DNA from: a phage
Length of the DNA stretch: 64,000 nucleotides
Reading direction: 5' to 3' (one strand)
Sequence record: PZ445442.1
The position numbers and the translations under genes were made by a program. A model generated the notes under the pieces. The model ran no database searches. It saw only the letters and a program-made list of their open reading frames with translations, and had not been told where the DNA came from. Shown here piece by piece: positions 3,141 through 40,436 of this stretch; position 1 is the first letter of the stretch, and each line of letters begins with the position of its first letter.

Positions 3141-3804
3141 CTGGAGCAAGTATTTCACCTACAGTGACGGCAAACTGTTCTGGGCGTACACTGCAAAAGC
3201 CGGAAGGGGCAGGGTTATACATTACGCAGGTGAGGAGGCCACAGGCACAGATAAAAATGGCTATAGAGTGATATATGTGTCAGGTGTTGGGAGTGTTCGT
3301 AGGCATAGAATAGTTTGGGAGATGCATTACGGGGAGATACCTGAGGGACTTGTTGTGCGGCACAAGAACGACATAGCGGGCGATGATAGGGTAGAGAACT
3401 TAGTCCTAGGTACACAGGGCGATAATGCACGAGACATGATCTACAGTGACAAACTGAGCATTAACAATACCTCAGGGTGTAGAGGTGTACGCTACCATAG
3501 AGGCATAAAAAGATGGATTGCATCTGTTGGAGATATATACTTAGGGTGTTTTAAGACAAAAGAGGCTGCAATTGAATGCAGAAAGTTATGGGAGAAGGGA
3601 AAATTCGTCCCGCAAGAGTTGGATGTTAGAAACACTAGCGGTGTAACAGGGGTGTTCTATGTGCCGAGCTCTGGAAGGTGGAGAGTCAGAGTGCAAAGCG
3701 GCAAAAAGAGAAAGAGCTATGGCACTTACAATACTTTAGAAGAAGCAAAAACTGTAAGGGATAGAGTGATGAAAGAGATTGAGGAGTTTAAAGATGGGGA
3801 ATAA
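3133..3804 (+). CDS. HNH homing endonuclease (HNH + AP2-like DNA-binding domain), free-standing
   Basis: HRIVWEMHYGEIP...VVRHKNDIAGDDRVENL HNH signature and GVRYH..WIASV...LGCFKTKEEA AP2-like motif; sits between the MTase-like gene and primase-helicase. Confidence 0.7.
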   Translation: MVDWSKYFTYSDGKLFWAYTAKAGRGRVIHYAGEEATGTDKNGYRVIYVSGVGSVRRHRIVWEMHYGEIPEGLVVRHKNDIAGDDRVENLVLGTQGDNARDMIYSDKLSINNTSGCRGVRYHRGIKRWIASVGDIYLGCFKTKEAAIECRKLWEKGKFVPQELDVRNTSGVTGVFYVPSSGRWRVRVQSGKKRKSYGTYNTLEEAKTVRDRVMKEIEEFKDGE

Positions 3805-5872
3805 GTTTATATCCTCTGCATATAGCCGCTATGGAGAACCTAACCCAGTTGCAACAAGATACAAAAGTGGGGGTAGTATGAAACGAGACTATCGTGATGA
3901 AAAAGAGGTTGAAACTGTAGAGACTGTTTTAGAAAATACTAAAATTGTCCCTGTCCCACAACAAAATATCGGTCTGATGGCTGCACAATATTTTGGTGTG
4001 CGATCAGCATTGTCCCAAGAAGACGGTGTGACAGTCACTGCAACATATTTCCCATATTACGACCGATACGGAAATCTGTCCGGTTTCAAAAAGCGTGACT
4101 GGTCTAAGCCGAAAGAGCAGAAAGGGCACTGGTCTGTAGTAGGCATCGTAAAGGCCAACTCCCAGATGTTTGGTCAAAAGCTGTGTGCATCTTCCAACAA
4201 CCGTAAGCAGATCAACGTTTGTGAGGGAGAAGGTGATGTTATTGCAGCATGGCAGGCTGCATATCAGATACAAGTAAAAGGGATTCTCACCAATGCTAAA
4301 GCCCCGGCAAAGGTGAAGCAGTGGGCTAAAGAGGTCCAGGACGGGATCGATGCAGTTATCAACGGCGGTGATCTGGCAGGAAAACCCTGCCTGCCTTTTG
4401 TTGGAATTAACTGTGGATGTGCAAACGCAGTAGATACTTTTGCAAACAATGAGAAGTTTATCCGTAGCTATGGAACAGTTGTGCTGGCAATGGATAACGA
4501 TGCAGCTAACGAGGTAGAGAAGCAAAAACACGTCATTAAAGGTGTTGAGGCCACGCACAATATCGCAGCATTTTTAATGGCTGATAACGTTTACCACGTA
4601 GAATACCCTGGTGAAGTAAACGACCCTGACGGTGTAAAAGATATCCGAGACATGCTGAAGGCTAAAAAGCTGGAAGATATTGTCAACATGTTCCGGCATC
4701 CTGTTAAATATGTGCCTGATGCTGTGTCGGATTTAGAAGACTTCTCTATCGAGTCTTTGCGGAAAAAGACTTCCAACGGGGTAGATATCAGTGCAGAGTT
4801 CCCAAAACTGCAAAAAATGCTAAAAGGCTTGCACAAAGGGACACTCGTAATGCTTACAGGTCCATCAGGCGGCGGTAAAACAACCGTGGCTAAAAAACTG
4901 GAACACTGTATTGCAAGATACCTAATGGATCCGACATGCCAGAAGGCTGATGACTATGAAGAGGATGATCGTCTATGTATGATCCATCTTGAGGAGGACC
5001 CAGAGGAAGCAATTAACTCCTTGTATGCAAACCAGTTAGGGTTTGATGTTAAAGAGTTTGTTGAAGATCCTAGCCAGTTTTTAACTGATCAAGAACACGC
5101 AGAGATTCACCAATCATGGGCAAAAGCTGGAAAAATCAAAGTGTTCAAACATTTCGGGTCTATTCCGGTGGACGAGTTGATTACCAAGCTTAAGCAAATG
5201 GTTTGCCTGTACCATTGTCGTTATATTGTGCTGGATCACCTATCCATGGTAATTTCAGGGCTTAATGTTAAGGATGAGCGAAAAGAACTGGACATAGCTA
5301 TGACTCAGCTGGCTGCGTTTTGTAAGCAGTTTAATGTGTTTATCTTGGTGATCGCTCACCTCAAACGTACAGAGATTGTGCCTCCTAAGGACAAGGATGG
5401 TAACCCGTTACCTTTCTGGTATCCTGTGCGAAAAGAGAATTTGCGAGGATCGGCTGGGCTTGAGCAGTTGAGTTGGGTAGTCATAGGTGTCGAGGCCGAA
5501 GAAATGGTGGATCGTTCTCGTGGGCGTGTCCGTCTGGTAGGTCTTAAAAACCGTCCAGCAAAAACTTTAGGTATTGCTGACACTTTAGTTATGGACCCAC
5601 ACACAGGTAAGTTCCATGATGCCAGTAATTGGTACTGGGACAAAGAAATGCAAATGTTTACAGACGGAGAAGGTGGGGAGGTTGTTTGGAGACCTCAGGC
5701 TATGTTTGAGGATCAGGAGCATGCAGTTGTAGAAACACCTATGGGCAAGGTTGTGGCTGATAAGGTTGTAACTCCTACTGTTAAGTCTGTTGACACGCAG
5801 GAAGACCTCCAGTACGATGATCCATCCTCTGACCCGGTCCCCGGTTTTGAGGATGATGAAACGCCTTTTTAA
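3794..5872 (+). CDS. DNA primase-helicase (Toprim + DnaB-like helicase, T7 gp4-like)
   Basis: Toprim motifs CEGEGDV and LAMDNDAANE; Walker A GPSGGGKTT; Walker B/H2 IVLDHLS. Start moved to ATG 3794 with GAGGAG SD 7 nt upstream (track start 3779 is TTG). Confidence 0.85.
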   Translation: MGNKFISSAYSRYGEPNPVATRYKSGGSMKRDYRDEKEVETVETVLENTKIVPVPQQNIGLMAAQYFGVRSALSQEDGVTVTATYFPYYDRYGNLSGFKKRDWSKPKEQKGHWSVVGIVKANSQMFGQKLCASSNNRKQINVCEGEGDVIAAWQAAYQIQVKGILTNAKAPAKVKQWAKEVQDGIDAVINGGDLAGKPCLPFVGINCGCANAVDTFANNEKFIRSYGTVVLAMDNDAANEVEKQKHVIKGVEATHNIAAFLMADNVYHVEYPGEVNDPDGVKDIRDMLKAKKLEDIVNMFRHPVKYVPDAVSDLEDFSIESLRKKTSNGVDISAEFPKLQKMLKGLHKGTLVMLTGPSGGGKTTVAKKLEHCIARYLMDPTCQKADDYEEDDRLCMIHLEEDPEEAINSLYANQLGFDVKEFVEDPSQFLTDQEHAEIHQSWAKAGKIKVFKHFGSIPVDELITKLKQMVCLYHCRYIVLDHLSMVISGLNVKDERKELDIAMTQLAAFCKQFNVFILVIAHLKRTEIVPPKDKDGNPLPFWYPVRKENLRGSAGLEQLSWVVIGVEAEEMVDRSRGRVRLVGLKNRPAKTLGIADTLVMDPHTGKFHDASNWYWDKEMQMFTDGEGGEVVWRPQAMFEDQEHAVVETPMGKVVADKVVTPTVKSVDTQEDLQYDDPSSDPVPGFEDDETPF

Positions 5873-8354: not shown

Positions 8355-9196
8355 AAATAACATTGTGGCTTCGTGCAGTGATGCACGTCGAAAACCTCTT
8401 TAATTGACGGGAAGGCTAAGTTGACTTTTACACCTAAACATGGTAAAAGCTCAATATGCTAATCCGCAGCGAAGACTAAAGGGGTGTAGTTAAAATGGCT
8501 AGATCAGTTGATTATCACGGATATACCGTGTTTGATGATGGAACAATACCTTTATCGAAACGTGATCATACAACAATGTTCTGTTTTGATAATGGTCGAG
8601 GTTACCTTTGCGTAACCATGTTCATCGAGGGGAAGCAGTGCACAAAAGGTGTCCACCACTTGGTTGCTGAATGCTTTGTATCAAACCCTGATCCTGAAAG
8701 GCTCACATGGGTGAACCATAAGGACGGAAACAAATACAACAATGCATACTGGAACCTTGAATGGACCACCCCTGGTGGAAATATCAAACACGCTTATGAT
8801 AATGACCTCAGAGTAAGGCCAGTCGGTGAGTATAATGCCAACGCTGTACTGACCGAGGATGAGGTAACGGAGATTTGCGAACTGTTACAAAGTGGTTTAC
8901 GACAATGCGAGATTAGGGATCTTGGGTATCCTTATGAGACGGTCAGAGCCATAAAGCAAAGAAGACAGTGGAAACATATCTCTAAAAACTACACCTGGTA
9001 GTAACGTTCAGAGACTATCGAAAGCATAGCGCCAACATAAATTGGTGCGAAGAAGCGAGTAGAGTAGGCCAGCAAGTGCGGTCGAAATGGGAGGTGCCTT
9101 GGTAACAAGGTAGTGAGATAGTCCGATCCATACAGGAAACTGTATGGCTGTGCACGTAATGGTGCGGGGTAGCTTAACGACCTACCTGAACTATTG
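8355..9196 (+). mobile_element. group I self-splicing intron in DNA polymerase gene (contains HNH ORF)
   Basis: P1: exon CCAT (8351-8354) pairs with intron GTGG (8365-8368) giving the U-G splice-site wobble; P7 strands CAGAGACTA (about 9009-9017) and GAGATAGTCCG (about 9115-9125); intron ends in G9196; splicing restores motif C (...YYH|DEYQLQV). Confidence 0.7.
8495..9001 (+). CDS. intron-encoded HNH homing endonuclease
   Basis: Track ORF; HLVAECFVSNPDPERLTWVNHKDGNKYNNAYWNLEW HNH_3-like signature; located between P6-region and P7 of the intron. Confidence 0.75.
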   Translation: MARSVDYHGYTVFDDGTIPLSKRDHTTMFCFDNGRGYLCVTMFIEGKQCTKGVHHLVAECFVSNPDPERLTWVNHKDGNKYNNAYWNLEWTTPGGNIKHAYDNDLRVRPVGEYNANAVLTEDEVTEICELLQSGLRQCEIRDLGYPYETVRAIKQRRQWKHISKNYTW

Positions 9197-9550
9197 GATG
9201 AGTACCAACTTCAAGTGCCTGACACACCTAAGTATAAAACCGTATACACCTTCGACACAATTGAAGAGCTGGAAACATTTAAGGCCAAGCAGGAGGCTAA
9301 ACTTCATGTGTTCGACGGTCATAAGTACAAAAAGGCACGCAAGGATGAGGATGGAAACGAAGTGGTTGACAAGGACGGAAATACGGTGTACGATCCTATC
9401 CTGAACGATGACGGAAAGCTTGAACTTATCTGGAGCCCTGTGGGTGAAATGGTGGTGCATTGCTTCTGGCAAGCTTCTAAAATGATGGGAGTCCCGTTCC
9501 AGATCACAGGTGAATACTTGTGTGGTCGTAATTGGGGTGATTGTCACTAA
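9197..9550 (+). CDS. DNA polymerase, family A, exon 2 (motif C and C-terminus)
   Basis: Begins DEYQLQV (motif C HDE after splicing) and ends ...GRNWGDCH, resembling the C-terminal tail of family-A polymerases. Confidence 0.75.
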   Translation, partial: DEYQLQVPDTPKYKTVYTFDTIEELETFKAKQEAKLHVFDGHKYKKARKDEDGNEVVDKDGNTVYDPILNDDGKLELIWSPVGEMVVHCFWQASKMMGVPFQITGEYLCGRNWGDCH

Positions 9551-29533: not shown

Positions 29534-29953
29534 ATGAACATTAAATCTAATAATCCGGCATATAGCTTTGATAACGCTTTTTGTCACGGTCCGGCGGCGA
29601 AAGGATTCGAAATCGATGGTAAACTAATTATTGTCAATGTTGACGGGGAAGAGGTTGCAGTATATCCGGTGGCAGACGTTAAAAGCCGTCTACAATGCCG
29701 CATGGATGTTACCGCCTATCAGCTTGATCCGGTCCGCATAGTTGCCCTGGTCCTGGAAGAAGAAATTAAAGCCATGCACCATAGCAACAGATTTATTGGT
29801 GACGCGCAGGATAATATGAAAGTATGCCGCCATAAAGTTAATGAAGTGCTTAAAGAGTACGGCTATAAAGATCTTATGATCAAACGCGAGGAAAAATTCC
29901 GCTACCGTAACGACCTGGCAAATCGGATTTTTGAAATATACGAATCATTATAA
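29534..29953 (+). CDS. hypothetical protein
   Basis: Track ORF; AAGAGGTAAAAA SD. Confidence 0.55.
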   Translation: MNIKSNNPAYSFDNAFCHGPAAKGFEIDGKLIIVNVDGEEVAVYPVADVKSRLQCRMDVTAYQLDPVRIVALVLEEEIKAMHHSNRFIGDAQDNMKVCRHKVNEVLKEYGYKDLMIKREEKFRYRNDLANRIFEIYESL

Positions 29954-29971
29954 TTTTTTAACTGAATTATC

Positions 29972-29997
29972 AAGGGGCTTAGGCCCCTTTCTTTTTG
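29972..29997 (+). terminator. rho-independent terminator ending the rightward block
   Basis: AAGGGGC-TTAG-GCCCCTT stem followed by TCTTTTTG. Confidence 0.55.
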
Positions 29998-30599
29998 TCT
30001 GCTCTTCCCCCTACCATAAACGGCCCTACCTGGCAAGTGGAATAATTGACGAGCCATCAATCCCACACACTGTACAAACATACATATAAAATAACTATTG
30101 CATAATTTTTCATTGTGTGGTAGCAGGGCCATTTTTACACATTTTTCCTTCCAAAATTGCACGTAATGCAGCATTTGCACAAAATTTAACCTGATGCATA
30201 TATTCAATAGCTTGTCAACAACTAAAAATCTTTATAAGTCATACACTTACATAACTACAAAAGCGTTTTCTACGTGAAAAATCGAGTATAACTATAGCCG
30301 CCAGATCTCAGAATTTACGTACGCTCGCCATTCTATAGCCTGCTAAGCATTTATTCCAACCATAGAATAACGGAATAGTCAATACCTGCATAAAATAATT
30401 ATTCGTGTAAACTGCATAACATAAATCGGCCCAGGTGTCAACATTTTTCGTAAACAGTCTGGAATTGTCACGTTAGGTTACCATAAGCAGAGAAATCTTT
30501 AGTCGTCTAATGTTTACTGTACGTTACTATATTAACTGAAATCATTAGATGACTAATAGAAAGATAAGAAATAATTAACAATACAATTATTTTATCTGT

Positions 30600-30960
30600 A
30601 ACAATAAGGCAACTATGCAAACGAATGGCATGGCGCGACGGAGTCGCGACATAATATAAAAGCAGTAACCATCACCCCCGTGATAGTTTGTCTGCAAACT
30701 ATTAATCAGATCATAGTTGCCTTGTATTTAGTTAATCATGACATAACAAGCAAGGCAACTATAGATCTTCTAATAGTTGCCCTGCTTTTATATTATGTCA
30801 TAAATTATTAACATGCAAACGAATGGCATGGCTTATAATTTTTGAGAAAATAGTCTATACGTGAACAGTAAGGCATGCAATAGTAACAATTGTTATTGTA
30901 TCCAGTGTGTTGAGTATGCCCAGTATGTCACCATTGTGTCCAGTATGTCAGACAAGTTTT
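30600..30960. repeat. cluster of inverted and direct repeats in the convergent non-coding region
   Basis: 9-bp site GGCAACTAT at about 30608 and 30754, its complement ATAGTTGCC at about 30713 and 30773; 19-bp direct repeat TGCAAACGAATGGCATGGC at about 30616 and 30814; 18-bp inverted pair GACATAATATAAAAGCAG (about 30648) / CTGCTTTTATATTATGTC (about 30782); CCAGTATGTCA x2 at about 30920-30950. Confidence 0.5.
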
Positions 30961-32399
30961 CCTCCTCTTTGTCAAGTGCTGCATGAAAAATTTACAAACT
31001 GGTATGGTAGCATTTTTGCGGCCCTGTTTACATTCAGTAATGTATGTATAATCCTTGTTGTGTGGGCGTTTAGACGTCTAGACGGTTGGAAGTCTACAGG
31101 TCAATATCTAATCTATTGGCTGCTAACTATATCCCACACAAATAGTAAGAAATATGATTGTTATATGCGTAAACTGTAACTCATGTTATCAATCCCTGTA
31201 TGTATCACCAGTGGTGCGCATAATGGGTATTATGTTAAATTGCCCGTAATGATAACTATTCTCACAATGATAGGTATTCTCATTCACCCCAACAAAATAG
31301 GTTGCAAATGTTGTGCCACTGTGTGAACGGCCTCACCTATTAATTTGCCTCACTGCCTCGATATTTGAGAATTATTATAAAAATGAGAAGTATTCCCATT
31401 CCGTCCGCCTGGCAGCACTCCAGTCGCTACGGCTCCTGACAGGGCAGCACTCCTGTAGGTCAGGTCAAAATCGGGGTAGAACTGGACCTGTTCAGATATT
31501 TCTGGCTGACTCTTCAGGTCTGTGTGGGAAAAGCCAACCTCTCCGGCGGGGCAGGGGAGGTAAATTAAAAAATTTACGTGGTGTATGAAGAGCCCTTCAG
31601 GTAAGGCATGTATTATAGGATGAAACCCTCTTCAGGCATGATATTTGTGGGTGTGATATTTGCTGGAAAGCCAGATATGACGGGACTCCCGGCGGGGCAG
31701 GGGTAGTACAGACGGGGAAATATGGGGATGTAGTTGGGGAAATTGATCAGGCAGGTGGGGTATAGGATATGTTACAAGTATGTTAAATATGGAGGTTGAA
31801 TATCTGTAGGATTTGTGTGTAAAATCAAAGACTTAAGTGGTGTTGTGGTATTTTCTATAAATAATTCAAGTTTAATAGGTAATATTTGCCTCTATCCACT
31901 TTGTGTGGTAAACAGATTCAGATGAGATTAGTTTACAAGTGTATACATAATATACAAATTAAAGATACAGGAAACCCCCCTCCCCCTTCGGCTACCATTC
32001 ACCTTTTCCTCTGACTGGTACTTAAACACTTATTCAGACTCTTCAGGTTATCACCCATATATCATATGGCAGTGACTGGTGTCCTCCGGCCCCTCTTTCG
32101 TCACCCGTCCGCTTCGCCATGCTAATGCCATAGCCAAAGGTTCGGTTGTTCACCCTGTTCACTCAGGTGTATCTCCATACCCCTTCAAACCGAAGAGAAC
32201 AGAAAACCCGAATTACTCGGTAAAAGAAAAGAGAAGAACTTAATTTTATCAGGATAGGCAAGAATGTCAAGGCATGACTGCTCACTAAACAAGCAAACAG
32301 TCATGTGTGGGAGGTAAGTGATTGTGGTGGTGGGAAATTTAGTTGAAAGATGTGTTATAGGTGCGCTTCCAGCACTTTAGCCGGGCAGCTAATTGTGTG

Positions 32400-32615
32400 T
32401 CAGTCCAGCGGTTCATCCTCTACTTCACTGAAATCAATGTTCATGGTCTCTTCCCAACCATCGATCTCAGCACAAGAGTGGAGTTCTTTAGGGTTTACTC
32501 CCAAAGCCTCAGCAACAGAGTCTATATTTAACACCTCTGGCAGGTATGATTCATCGAATTCAAGGTAAATCAGGCCACGAGTGTTGTCAGCTCCACCAAA
32601 TATTTCTATCTTCAT
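32400..32615 (-). CDS. hypothetical small acidic protein
   Basis: Track ORF; last gene of the leftward block. Confidence 0.5.
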   Translation of the reverse strand: MKIEIFGGADNTRGLIYLEFDESYLPEVLNIDSVAEALGVNPKELHSCAEIDGWEETMNIDFSEVEDEPLD

Positions 32616-33999: not shown

Positions 34000-34305
34000 T
34001 TATTCTACAGAGCGTTTGAACAGAATGTCTGCCTCAGACATGTGCTCAACCTCTTCTTCGATTTTAGCTCGACGTTTTTCAGCCTCATAGCGAATATCGA
34101 ACTCGGTAGCCACCAGGGATTTGATGAATTTAGGAGAATACAGGTGATCCTGCTTCTCTACGAGAATGATATCCTTAATGGCATCTTTCAGATCTTTAAT
34201 CTGAAGTTGGAGTTCTACCAGTTCTTCGATTGTTTTGCGAAGGCGATCACGCTCTGCAGTGTCAGAAGGAAGAGAGGTGAACAGTTCAACTTTAGATTTA
34301 GCCAT
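34000..34305 (-). CDS. hypothetical coiled-coil protein
   Basis: Track ORF; heptad-like charged sequence. Confidence 0.5.
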   Translation of the reverse strand: MAKSKVELFTSLPSDTAERDRLRKTIEELVELQLQIKDLKDAIKDIILVEKQDHLYSPKFIKSLVATEFDIRYEAEKRRAKIEEEVEHMSEADILFKRSVE

Positions 34306-40059: not shown

Positions 40060-40063
40060 AATT

Positions 40064-40255
40064 CAGCCTCGCATAGACATAATCACTATAAACAGGCAAA
40101 CAATGAATCCGAATGCCACGCCACCCATAAACGTTAATATTGATGCAATCATAGTCAATCAGCCTCGCATAGACATAATCACTATAAACAGGCAAACAAT
40201 GAATCCGAATGCCACGCCACCCATAAACGTTAATATTGATGCAATCATAGTCAAT
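40064..40255. repeat. perfect tandem direct repeat, 2 x 96 bp (plus 9-bp start of a third unit)
   Basis: Unit CAGCCTCGCATAGACATAATCACTATAAACAGGCAAACAATGAATCCGAATGCCACGCCACCCATAAACGTTAATATTGATGCAATCATAGTCAAT appears twice back-to-back; intergenic on the minus strand. Confidence 0.8.
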
Positions 40256-40436
40256 CAGCCTCGCTTGGCAACTCTTCTACCTTAACATGCCGAAAAGTGT
40301 TACCGTAATGGTTGATCCATGACATCAGCTCGCTTTCTTGCTCTTCCTCTGGGATGAACTCTCGAATGCTGACAAGTTTTAAGAAAACCCAATCACAATC
40401 TGCACCCATTCTACCAGACAGGCAATAGTGCTTCAT
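40251..40436 (-). CDS. hypothetical protein
   Basis: Track ORF. Confidence 0.45.
   Translation of the reverse strand: MKHYCLSGRMGADCDWVFLKLVSIREFIPEEEQESELMSWINHYGNTFRHVKVEELPSEAD

Follow-up and report, generated by a model that had tools for sequence, protein, structure and literature searches.

What is the function of a gene-free stretch of about 2.4 kb that lies where two gene blocks of a large phage genome run towards each other? We addressed this question in a 64,000-nucleotide stretch of phage DNA (record PZ445442.1; called the window, with positions counted from its first letter), which is 100% identical to Escherichia phage EmilHeitz (Bas49; MZ501062.1), a 139,980-bp rV5-like Vequintavirus with Escherichia coli as host; EmilHeitz record positions are obtained by adding 64,682 to the window positions. 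An original prediction made from the letters alone had placed the region at the convergence of two gene blocks, and this is borne out: the plus-strand block ends at 29953 (bas49_0135), the stop codon of the minus-strand block lies at 32400 (bas49_0136), and the EmilHeitz record annotates no coding sequence from 29953 to 32400. The 2.4-kb region is found with 90-95% identity in 122 phage records, and a sensitive blastn search for DNA-level homologues outside the genus returned the same 122 records only. The locus is the one drawn as a grey 'non-coding' box between genes 163 and 164 on the map of rV5, whose authors noted a change in guanine-cytosine (GC) skew there, gave the locus no function and expected bidirectional terminators, but found neither terminators nor promoters (Kropinski et al., 2013; PMC3606486). 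A literature search on vequintavirus transcriptomics, on their origin of replication or on this non-coding region yielded only the rV5 box and notes on terminal repeats.

In our reading, the linear chromosome of this phage carries a short direct terminal repeat, and the region represents its ends or, in a concatemer, the junction; to this we assign a probability of about 0.78. The evidence that carries it is a segment of the region (Table 1) that shares 95-97% identity with the 459-bp direct terminal repeat of the phages Gotham, EdH4 and HdK5. In the Gotham record the repeat is annotated at both ends and aligns to the segment with sharp edges. Terminal redundancies of 458 bp were described for EdH4 and HdK5 (Korf et al., 2019; PMC6563267), and this paper together with PMC7471380 is the published source for the 458-459-bp terminal repeat in the genus. 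The homologous positions are the exact start or end of at least nine GenBank records, which come from several laboratories; a search with the 459 bp alone identified EdH4, YN3, ECP2309, ECP2303 and bov10K2/11CS3/22_2/25_3 as records starting or ending at this block. The sequence reads TATGTCA/GACAAGTTTT across the left boundary and CCGTCCGCC/TGGCAGC across the right one (the slash marks the boundary), and the boundary sequences are invariant in 15 phages. The termini are thus fixed, non-permuted and located at conserved sequences.

An independently mapped case is phage KPP-1 (Mydovirus), for which coverage and PhageTerm analysis gave a 514-bp terminal repeat of the T7 type (PMC9862379). The KPP-1 repeat sits in a similar gap, poor in open reading frames (ORFs), between converging gene blocks; its boundaries align to those of the window within 0-2 nt, with a GATATTT box in register, and it retains ATTCTCATTC-type copies. 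Within the EmilHeitz repeat, a tandem 17-nt repeat, AATGATnnnTATTCTCA, appears by its position to match the 34-36-bp 'repeat_region' of Danish phage records. Because of the homology to the relatives' repeats, the record ends and the KPP-1 boundaries, we conclude by homology that the EmilHeitz virion DNA probably starts at 30951, runs rightwards around the genome and ends at 31409, the record having collapsed the repeat. The true ends would then correspond to record positions 95,633 and 96,091 and the genome would be ~140,439 bp long; like most vequintavirus records, that of EmilHeitz would be an arbitrary permutation with the terminal repeat collapsed.

Among the functions offered by the original prediction were a packaging region (pac or cos) and a terminus-proximal region. 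The terminus and packaging part of this proposal agrees with the mapping of the 458-459-bp repeat to 30951-31409, whereas ends of the cos or headful (pac) kind do not. Headful packaging with circular permutation is not what the genus displays, because its members have fixed ends with a defined 459-bp repeat, which contradicts the circular permutation assumed in the rV5 paper (PMC3606486).

The pattern of conservation around the repeat points in the same direction. Identity to the window was determined across 14 relatives and compared with a benchmark from the flanking genes, in which identity is 0.82-0.93 at third codon positions and 0.95-0.99 at first and second positions. The repeat (0.946) lies between two stretches that are the most variable in the 5 kb examined. 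Both flanks consist of short degenerate repeat arrays whose copy number varies between phages. Those on the left include the predicted pair of CCAGTATGTCA, which we located within 14-nt repeat copies (30917-30930 and 30937-30950), while the bases that immediately precede the left boundary, TGTCA, are invariant. The right flank holds the likewise predicted pair of GGCAGCACTCC (starts at 31411 and 31443, 32-nt spacing), which several relatives have collapsed to one copy (deletions in L010, L013 and L020).

A similar layout, with a conserved block of ~400 bp between hypervariable flanks, is present in clade B, an uncultured lineage represented by the IMG/VR contigs L004, L022 and L024 and several metagenome contigs. 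No relative of clade B was found among GenBank phages. Clade B shares a 139-aa flanking gene with EmilHeitz but almost none of the non-coding DNA; three islands nevertheless align to the window (31352-31410, 31620-31702 and 32141-32254), and the homology in the first of them stops at the right boundary of the repeat.

These data also bear on the alternative that much of the region is insertion-tolerant spacer or decayed DNA and that most of its repeats are functionless slippage products or debris of mini-elements. The left arm, for which no homologue was found in clade B or KPP-1, evolves at about the rate of third codon positions (0.914), the flanks of the repeat are hypervariable with copy-number changes, a hairpin mini-element occupies differing places across relatives, and one phage, FV3, tolerates the loss of the palindromic module described below. 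However, conservation clearly exceeds the neutral benchmark in the module (0.976), the repeat and a block at 31951-32350 (0.983), and the three islands persist in the otherwise unalignable clade B, so that we consider this alternative improbable for the region as a whole. The mini-element itself (...CACCCGAAGGGGTG...GGTCACCTGGCaTAGCCAGtGAAAG) is ~50 bp long and hairpin-rich, is absent from the window, and was found in the non-coding region of relatives of both clades, namely in L003 (~4800-4850), L011/L015/L019/L020 (~3790-3870), L005 (9326-9341, minus strand), L022 (three sites) and L024 (252-267); it looks like a small mobile insertion family.

Comparison of EmilHeitz, clade B and KPP-1 yields concrete candidates for terminase recognition, which has not previously been studied in this phage subfamily. 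In all three, a GATATTT box is found ~45-50 nt inside the right boundary, with two others immediately beyond it. To the right of the repeat, the window carries an array of short boxes with a periodicity of ~146 bp and a GC skew of +0.5 to +0.77 (Table 1), in which both predicted copies of CCGGCGGGGCAGGGG are present (starts at 31543 and 31689). The GATATTTG box occurs three times in the whole 64 kb, always in the region and on one strand. All three copies, together with copies of CTCTTCAGG, are common to EmilHeitz and clade B, and the island at 31620-31702 is 78% conserved in clade B. At the equivalent place KPP-1 carries TGATATTT twice along with G-runs. We regard the invariant boundaries and the GATATTT boxes as candidate terminase recognition signals, the evidence for the boxes consisting of their clustering and their cross-clade conservation.

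Repeat counts, shuffling controls, a coding test and scans for transfer RNAs (tRNAs) and Rfam families establish that the 2.4-kb region is non-coding and repeat-rich. All repeats named in the original prediction were recovered, each within a few bases of where it had placed them. Exact 12-mer repeat pairs within 29954-32399 number 14 direct and 9 inverted, compared with 0.3 and 0.4 in dinucleotide shuffles. Coding potential was assessed in an alignment of 15 vequintaviruses. Across 14 relatives, ORFs of at least 30 aa in the region have synonymous fractions of 0.08-0.39 and many are broken, whereas the real flanking genes reach 0.57-0.83 and are intact in at least 12 of the 14; hidden small genes are thereby ruled out, and the original view that the region holds no credible ORF stands, in line with the empty annotation. 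A 39-aa ORF at 32043-32162 on the minus strand, considered separately, is shortened in clade B, as judged by reading the sequences by eye. The absence of tRNA-like structures was likewise confirmed, ARAGORN reporting no tRNA in the region; Rfam 15 gave no match at the gathering threshold, and relaxed thresholds returned two chance-level microRNA matches (E of at least 0.42). The recurring CTCTTCAGG noted in the prediction lies at 31510, 31628 and 32039 in the region and totals seven copies in the window, all on the plus strand, against 0.55 expected. The copies outside the region (32689, 49032, 56462 and 57329, all plus) are antisense to minus-strand genes, whose coding strand reads CCTGAAGAG there; they may be a codon-usage coincidence or a signal.

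The most structured part of the region is a palindromic module in its left half. The original prediction had singled out a 9-bp site, GGCAACTAT, occurring four times in alternating orientation, and all four are where it placed them, at 30608 (+), 30713 (-), 30754 (+) and 30773 (-), within 175 bp. A fifth copy lies at 29738 (-) within the upstream gene, so that the window holds five against 0.51 expected, a number reached in 0 of 100 shuffles. The module is built from two inverted copies of a unit consisting of CAAGGCAACTAT, a 10-nt loop, ATAGTTGCC and then CTGCTTTTATATTATGTC, that is, a hairpin followed by a U-tract, and these hairpin-plus-CUGCUUUUAUAUUAUG units are candidate terminators on both strands. 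The 18-bp inverted pair, which is perfect as predicted (30648-30665 and 30782-30799), provides both U-tracts, and the outer direct repeat, ATGCAAACGAATGGCATGGC at 30615 and 30813, exists but measures 20 bp and not 19. Folding of the entire module into a single long hairpin or cruciform is also possible (-83 kcal/mol, z -7.9). Stem-loops followed by U-tracts, and hence predicted termination, were found in both orientations of the module (30748-30787 and 30688-30667 on the minus strand) and at the end of the left gene block (29972-29989); the record of phage Murica annotates a terminator near the equivalent of 30748-30787, and the terminator at 29972 seems, from its similar sequence and position, to correspond to t164, a terminator given in the rV5 supplement.

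A total of 118 records carry the module with at least 95% identity. In FV3 (L010, NC_019517), 198 bp corresponding to window positions 30635-30832 are missing exactly between the 20-bp direct repeats, with one repeat copy retained; SYGMH1, which belongs to the same species, has kept the module. At least one deposited isolate can therefore do without the module. A transposable mini-element would fit the 20-bp direct repeats on either side and the empty site in FV3. This idea was rejected: the inverted repeats are offset by 13 nt from the direct repeats, a second copy is nowhere to be found, and loss in FV3 by recombination between the direct repeats is the simpler reading. Most simply, the module would be a back-to-back terminator pair that blocks transcription across the junction, both that of the converging blocks and that starting at the minus-strand promoter described below. 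It could alternatively be a hairpin serving repeat duplication, as proposed for T7, or a protein-binding array; we leave room for these roles because of the high conservation of the loops and the position 115-350 bp from the repeat.

The interpretation of the GGCAACTAT sites as iterons of a replication origin did not hold up. The sites are 9 bp long, alternate in orientation and form the arms of hairpins that end in U-tracts, which differs from the ~17-22-bp same-orientation direct repeats of iterons, and FV3 has no module. More broadly, the region could be or contain an origin, which would be compatible with a terminal function. In a first version of this proposal the GGCAACTAT module would hold initiator-binding sites, with its AT-rich neighbour as the unwinding element. 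The high conservation of the module and the adjoining stretch of 23% GC at 30500-30599, in which the left arm ends, agree with this, and a further AT-rich stretch (29% GC) lies at 30800-30899, although such AT-richness is not specific to origins. In clade B, three perfect DnaA boxes (TGTGGATAA) lie within 40 bp at the left edge of the terminal-repeat-like block (L004, 7845-7884; L022, 11959-11998, minus strand; L024, 1004-1043). The window, however, contains no DnaA box in 29954-32400 even with one mismatch allowed, and no recognisable initiator gene lies beside the region. The cumulative GC skew of the window peaks here, and its global and local polarity are terminus-like. Since skew follows the direction of transcription, as the rV5 authors noted, this polarity is confounded (PMC3606486); forks and transcription that move towards the ends would be expected to give such a peak.

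DnaA boxes also figure in the proposal that the region controls DNA entry in the manner of the T5 injection-stop, with the incoming end being retained, for instance by membrane-bound DnaA, until early functions act. The T5 injection-stop has been described as a large untranslated part of the terminal repeat in which repeats, inverted repeats, palindromes and DnaA boxes abound (bioRxiv 10.1101/866236). EmilHeitz resembles it in general appearance only, its region being untranslated, rich in repeats and palindromes and located by a chromosome end, and the three consensus boxes at the repeat edge of clade B would suit such a role. An ordered set of DnaA boxes is nevertheless lacking in the EmilHeitz region, two-step injection is not known in vequintaviruses, the 459-bp repeat (compared with ~10 kb in T5) contains no genes and hence no pre-early genes to express, and there is no sequence similarity to T5. 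We therefore consider entry control of this type highly improbable.

The right part of the region contains the only element that looks undescribed, an ultra-conserved non-coding block of 400 nt. It carries a predicted minus-strand promoter that points to the repeat, matches 11 of 12 sigma-70 positions with an extended -10 element and a spacer of 16 nt (range for sigma-70, 16-18 nt), and is followed by a CU-rich leader and a series of short motifs (Table 1). Clade B has a promoter at the same place made of other bases (TTGCAA-17-TGcTATAAT) and keeps hairpins just upstream and ~20 nt downstream of it, the stems being wholly different with both sides changed. It also keeps, in the same order, the CU-rich leader, CUCUUCGGnUUGAAGG, the two GUGAACA motifs, CCUGAAGAG, GUUUAAGUACCAG and a G5-6-N-G5-6 run followed by AT-rich DNA. 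Local GC skew changes from +0.5 to +0.77 at 31650-31850 to -0.48 at 31950-32050, with the spacer of 27-29% GC in between. No counterpart of the block was found in KPP-1, and a host-derived origin was ruled out by a search of 5,426 E. coli genomes, which returned no match.

One explanation of this block is that its functional product is one or more non-coding RNAs acting on host or phage targets, with candidates of ~270 nt, running from ~32236 (minus strand) to near the G-run, or of ~1.6 kb, crossing the concatemer junction and stopping at the minus-strand hairpin at 30688-30648. The quality of the promoter, its preservation in clade B with different bases together with two hairpins changed on both stem sides, the potential of the CU-rich 5' leader to pair with the G-rich 3' run, and the extreme conservation without a coding signal are all consistent with it. 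The predicted folding energy of the block, however, is no better than that of shuffled sequences (z -0.57 and +1.06), and no Rfam family was matched. An RNAalifold analysis of five sequences gave 16 pairs changed on both sides in 31950-32350, but these come from two lineages only, which is inadequate for covariation, and a scan of viral and metagenome sequences with a conserved 20-mer in search of further lineages recovered Vequintavirus, clade B and chance matches only; a structured RNA was accordingly rejected as a candidate. The literature search found no expression data. On balance we hold a product of this kind to be unlikely.

The same elements form the second version of the origin proposal, in which the G-rich transcript from the promoter at 32270-32243 would form an R-loop at the G5AG6 run and prime synthesis in the AT-rich DNA at 31800-31950. 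Transcript-primed origins of this kind are represented by ColE1 RNA II, T4 oriF/ori(uvsY) and mitochondrial conserved sequence block II (CSBII). Promoter, G-rich RNA strand, G5AG6 run and 150 bp of 27-29% GC follow one another in the appropriate order, and all are kept in clade B. Against this, KPP-1 has no counterpart of the block, and leftward synthesis from 31900 would leave the linear end after ~1 kb. Taking both versions together, we regard an origin in this region as unlikely. The role of the block could lie in priming through an R-loop, in transcription-coupled processing of the junction, in loading of the terminase or in a regulatory RNA. That it acts as a transcription-dependent cis element, in which the G-rich RNA made by host RNA polymerase from the conserved promoter towards the repeat, or the act of transcription, either primes DNA synthesis (through an R-loop at G5AG6 and the AT-rich spacer) or licenses junction processing by the terminase, is a tentative and in our estimate quite unlikely proposal; if true, it would represent a new kind of replication or packaging signal in a large myovirus without an RNA polymerase of its own.

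Several observations weigh against assigning the whole region to the chromosome ends. The EmilHeitz ends are deduced from relatives at 95-97% identity, and the genomes were treated as circularly permuted in the rV5 paper (PMC3606486). The module, at least, cannot be essential for packaging, given its absence from FV3. The candidate boxes are short and not enriched genome-wide (GATATTTG, 3 compared with 3.5 expected; TGATATTT, 8 compared with 3.9). Finally, a terminal function alone leaves the 0.983 conservation of 31951-32350 unexplained.

Under the concatemer-junction reading, the elements can be combined into a tentative scheme. Replicating genomes would form head-to-tail concatemers in which neighbours share one copy of the repeat. 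The terminase would recognise fixed sequences at and around both boundaries, namely the TGTCA/GACAAG and GTCCGCC/TGGCA junctions and possibly the GATATTT box ~45-50 nt inside the right boundary and the GATATTT and CTCTTCAGG boxes just outside it. It would cut at the boundaries, and the repeat would be duplicated by synthesis, in a T7-type style of packaging. The hairpin-plus-U-tract units of the module and the terminator at 29972 would halt transcription of the converging blocks before it reaches the junction, and the conserved host-type promoter at 32270-32243 would send a non-coding transcript towards the repeat, which could serve junction processing, priming or a regulatory RNA function.

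Table 1. Elements of the non-coding region, in window coordinates; minus-strand features are given in the direction of reading, except for the block as a whole, and identities are to the window.
Feature	Position	Strand	Description
Predicted intrinsic terminator closing the left gene block	29972-29989	+	AAGGGGCTTAGGCCCCTT then TCTTTTT; terminator scan; -12.9 kcal/mol, z -2.5
Left arm	29990-30598		identity 0.914 (near neutral); gene-free; Vequintavirus-specific
Palindromic module	30599-30835		identity 0.976; four GGCAACTAT, 20-bp direct repeats (30615-30634, 30813-30832), 18-bp inverted repeat
Minus-strand hairpin	30688-30667	-	terminator scan; U-tract begins 5 nt past the stem
Plus-strand hairpin	30748-30787	+	-20.5 kcal/mol, z -5.4; then UUUUAUAUU
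Hypervariable left flank of the repeat	30836-30950		identity 0.688, gaps excluded; 0.59-0.77 in 50-nt bins
Direct terminal repeat, 459 bp, by homology to Gotham, EdH4, HdK5 and KPP-1	30951-31409		identity 0.946; single copy in the collapsed record
Tandem 17-nt repeat AATGATnnnTATTCTCA	31248-31282, third copy 31382-31398		within the terminal repeat
GATATTTG box	31360		inside the terminal repeat
Hypervariable right flank of the repeat	31410-31500		identity 0.67-0.81, with gaps
Right-arm box array	31486-31800	+	G-rich on the plus strand; GATATTTC 31494; CTCTTCAGG 31510, 31628; GATATTTG 31640, 31655; CCGGCGGGGCAGGGG 31543, 31689
Right-arm boxes	31501-31800		identity 0.921
AT-rich spacer	31801-31950		identity 0.919; 27-29% GC; strongly positive local GC skew turns strongly negative
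Ultra-conserved non-coding block, 400 nt	31951-32350	-	identity 0.983, equal to second codon positions; 0.98-1.00 over 32002-32301
G5AG6 run	31986-31975	-	
CCUGAAGAG	32047-32039	-	
GUGAACA, two copies	32166-32147	-	
Downstream hairpin	32220-32208	-	
Predicted transcript start	~32236	-	then CU-rich leader
Predicted sigma-70 promoter	32270-32243	-	-35 TTGACA 32270-32265, 16-nt spacer, -10 TGaTAAAAT 32248-32243; points to the repeat
Hairpin upstream of the promoter	32305-32273	-	

The surroundings of the region offer few functional clues. Nearly all flanking proteins, considered as candidate binders, belong to PHROGs whose function is unknown, and Pfam domains were found in none of them. The sole flanking gene with any functional label encodes a 101-aa protein (34003-34305, minus strand), 1.6 kb from the region, which matches PHROG 639, 'transcriptional regulator' (E 1e-21), and is called DsbA-like in some records. 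Further away, within the minus-strand gene block, a perfect 96-bp tandem duplication (2.1 copies, 100% match) at 40063-40264 corresponds to 32 codons and may be an in-frame duplication. In clade B, the non-coding region of L004 contains a 256-aa ORF (8716-9486), of which 41 bp match a region annotated as HNH homing endonuclease in 1 of 22 matching T7-like phage records; it may be a homing endonuclease insertion. Nineteen MG0656xx records titled 'Campylobacter phage' are 90-95% identical to E. coli vequintaviruses across the region; the one that was opened, A147, is marked UNVERIFIED and is unannotated, and these genomes are probably mislabelled or contaminants.

The core feature is already known, the non-coding region having been published in 2013 and the 458-459-bp repeat in 2019 and 2020, while no publication deals with the flanking elements, namely the palindromic module, the array of boxes and the promoter-bearing ultra-conserved block. 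What is added here is the placement of the repeat, its bracketing by hypervariable sequence, boundary and box signals that several clades have in common, an interpretation of the 'iterons' as terminator-like hairpins in pairs, and the promoter-bearing block, which is the one element here that we single out as worth experiment. Knowledge of the true ends matters for genome engineering and rebooting and for work on packaging and entry.

Compared with Gotham, EdH4, HdK5 and KPP-1, EmilHeitz has the same repeat boundaries at the same place between converging gene blocks, but its record neither annotates nor duplicates the repeat. In the cos site of lambda (cosQ-cosN-cosB), the cut site is combined with adjacent terminase-binding boxes. 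EmilHeitz similarly has an invariant putative cut site with an array of short candidate protein-binding boxes on one side; its ends, in contrast, are terminal repeats and not cohesive single-stranded ends. A further parallel is the concatemer junction of T7, of which the region is, judged from its sequence, probably the Vequintavirus counterpart. The T7 junction combines a short terminal repeat with arrays of short repeats, an end-directed promoter and a hairpin-forming inverted repeat for repeat duplication. EmilHeitz likewise has a short repeat whose ends are fixed, arrays of short repeats to its left and right, predicted terminators, a predicted promoter aimed at the repeat and, at a distance of 115-350 bp from one boundary, a large inverted repeat. 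Unlike T7, it is a myovirus with promoters for the host RNA polymerase, and it shares no sequence with T7; its adjacent gene blocks both point to the ends, with no early operon reading inwards, and it carries in addition the large palindromic module and the 400-nt ultra-conserved block.

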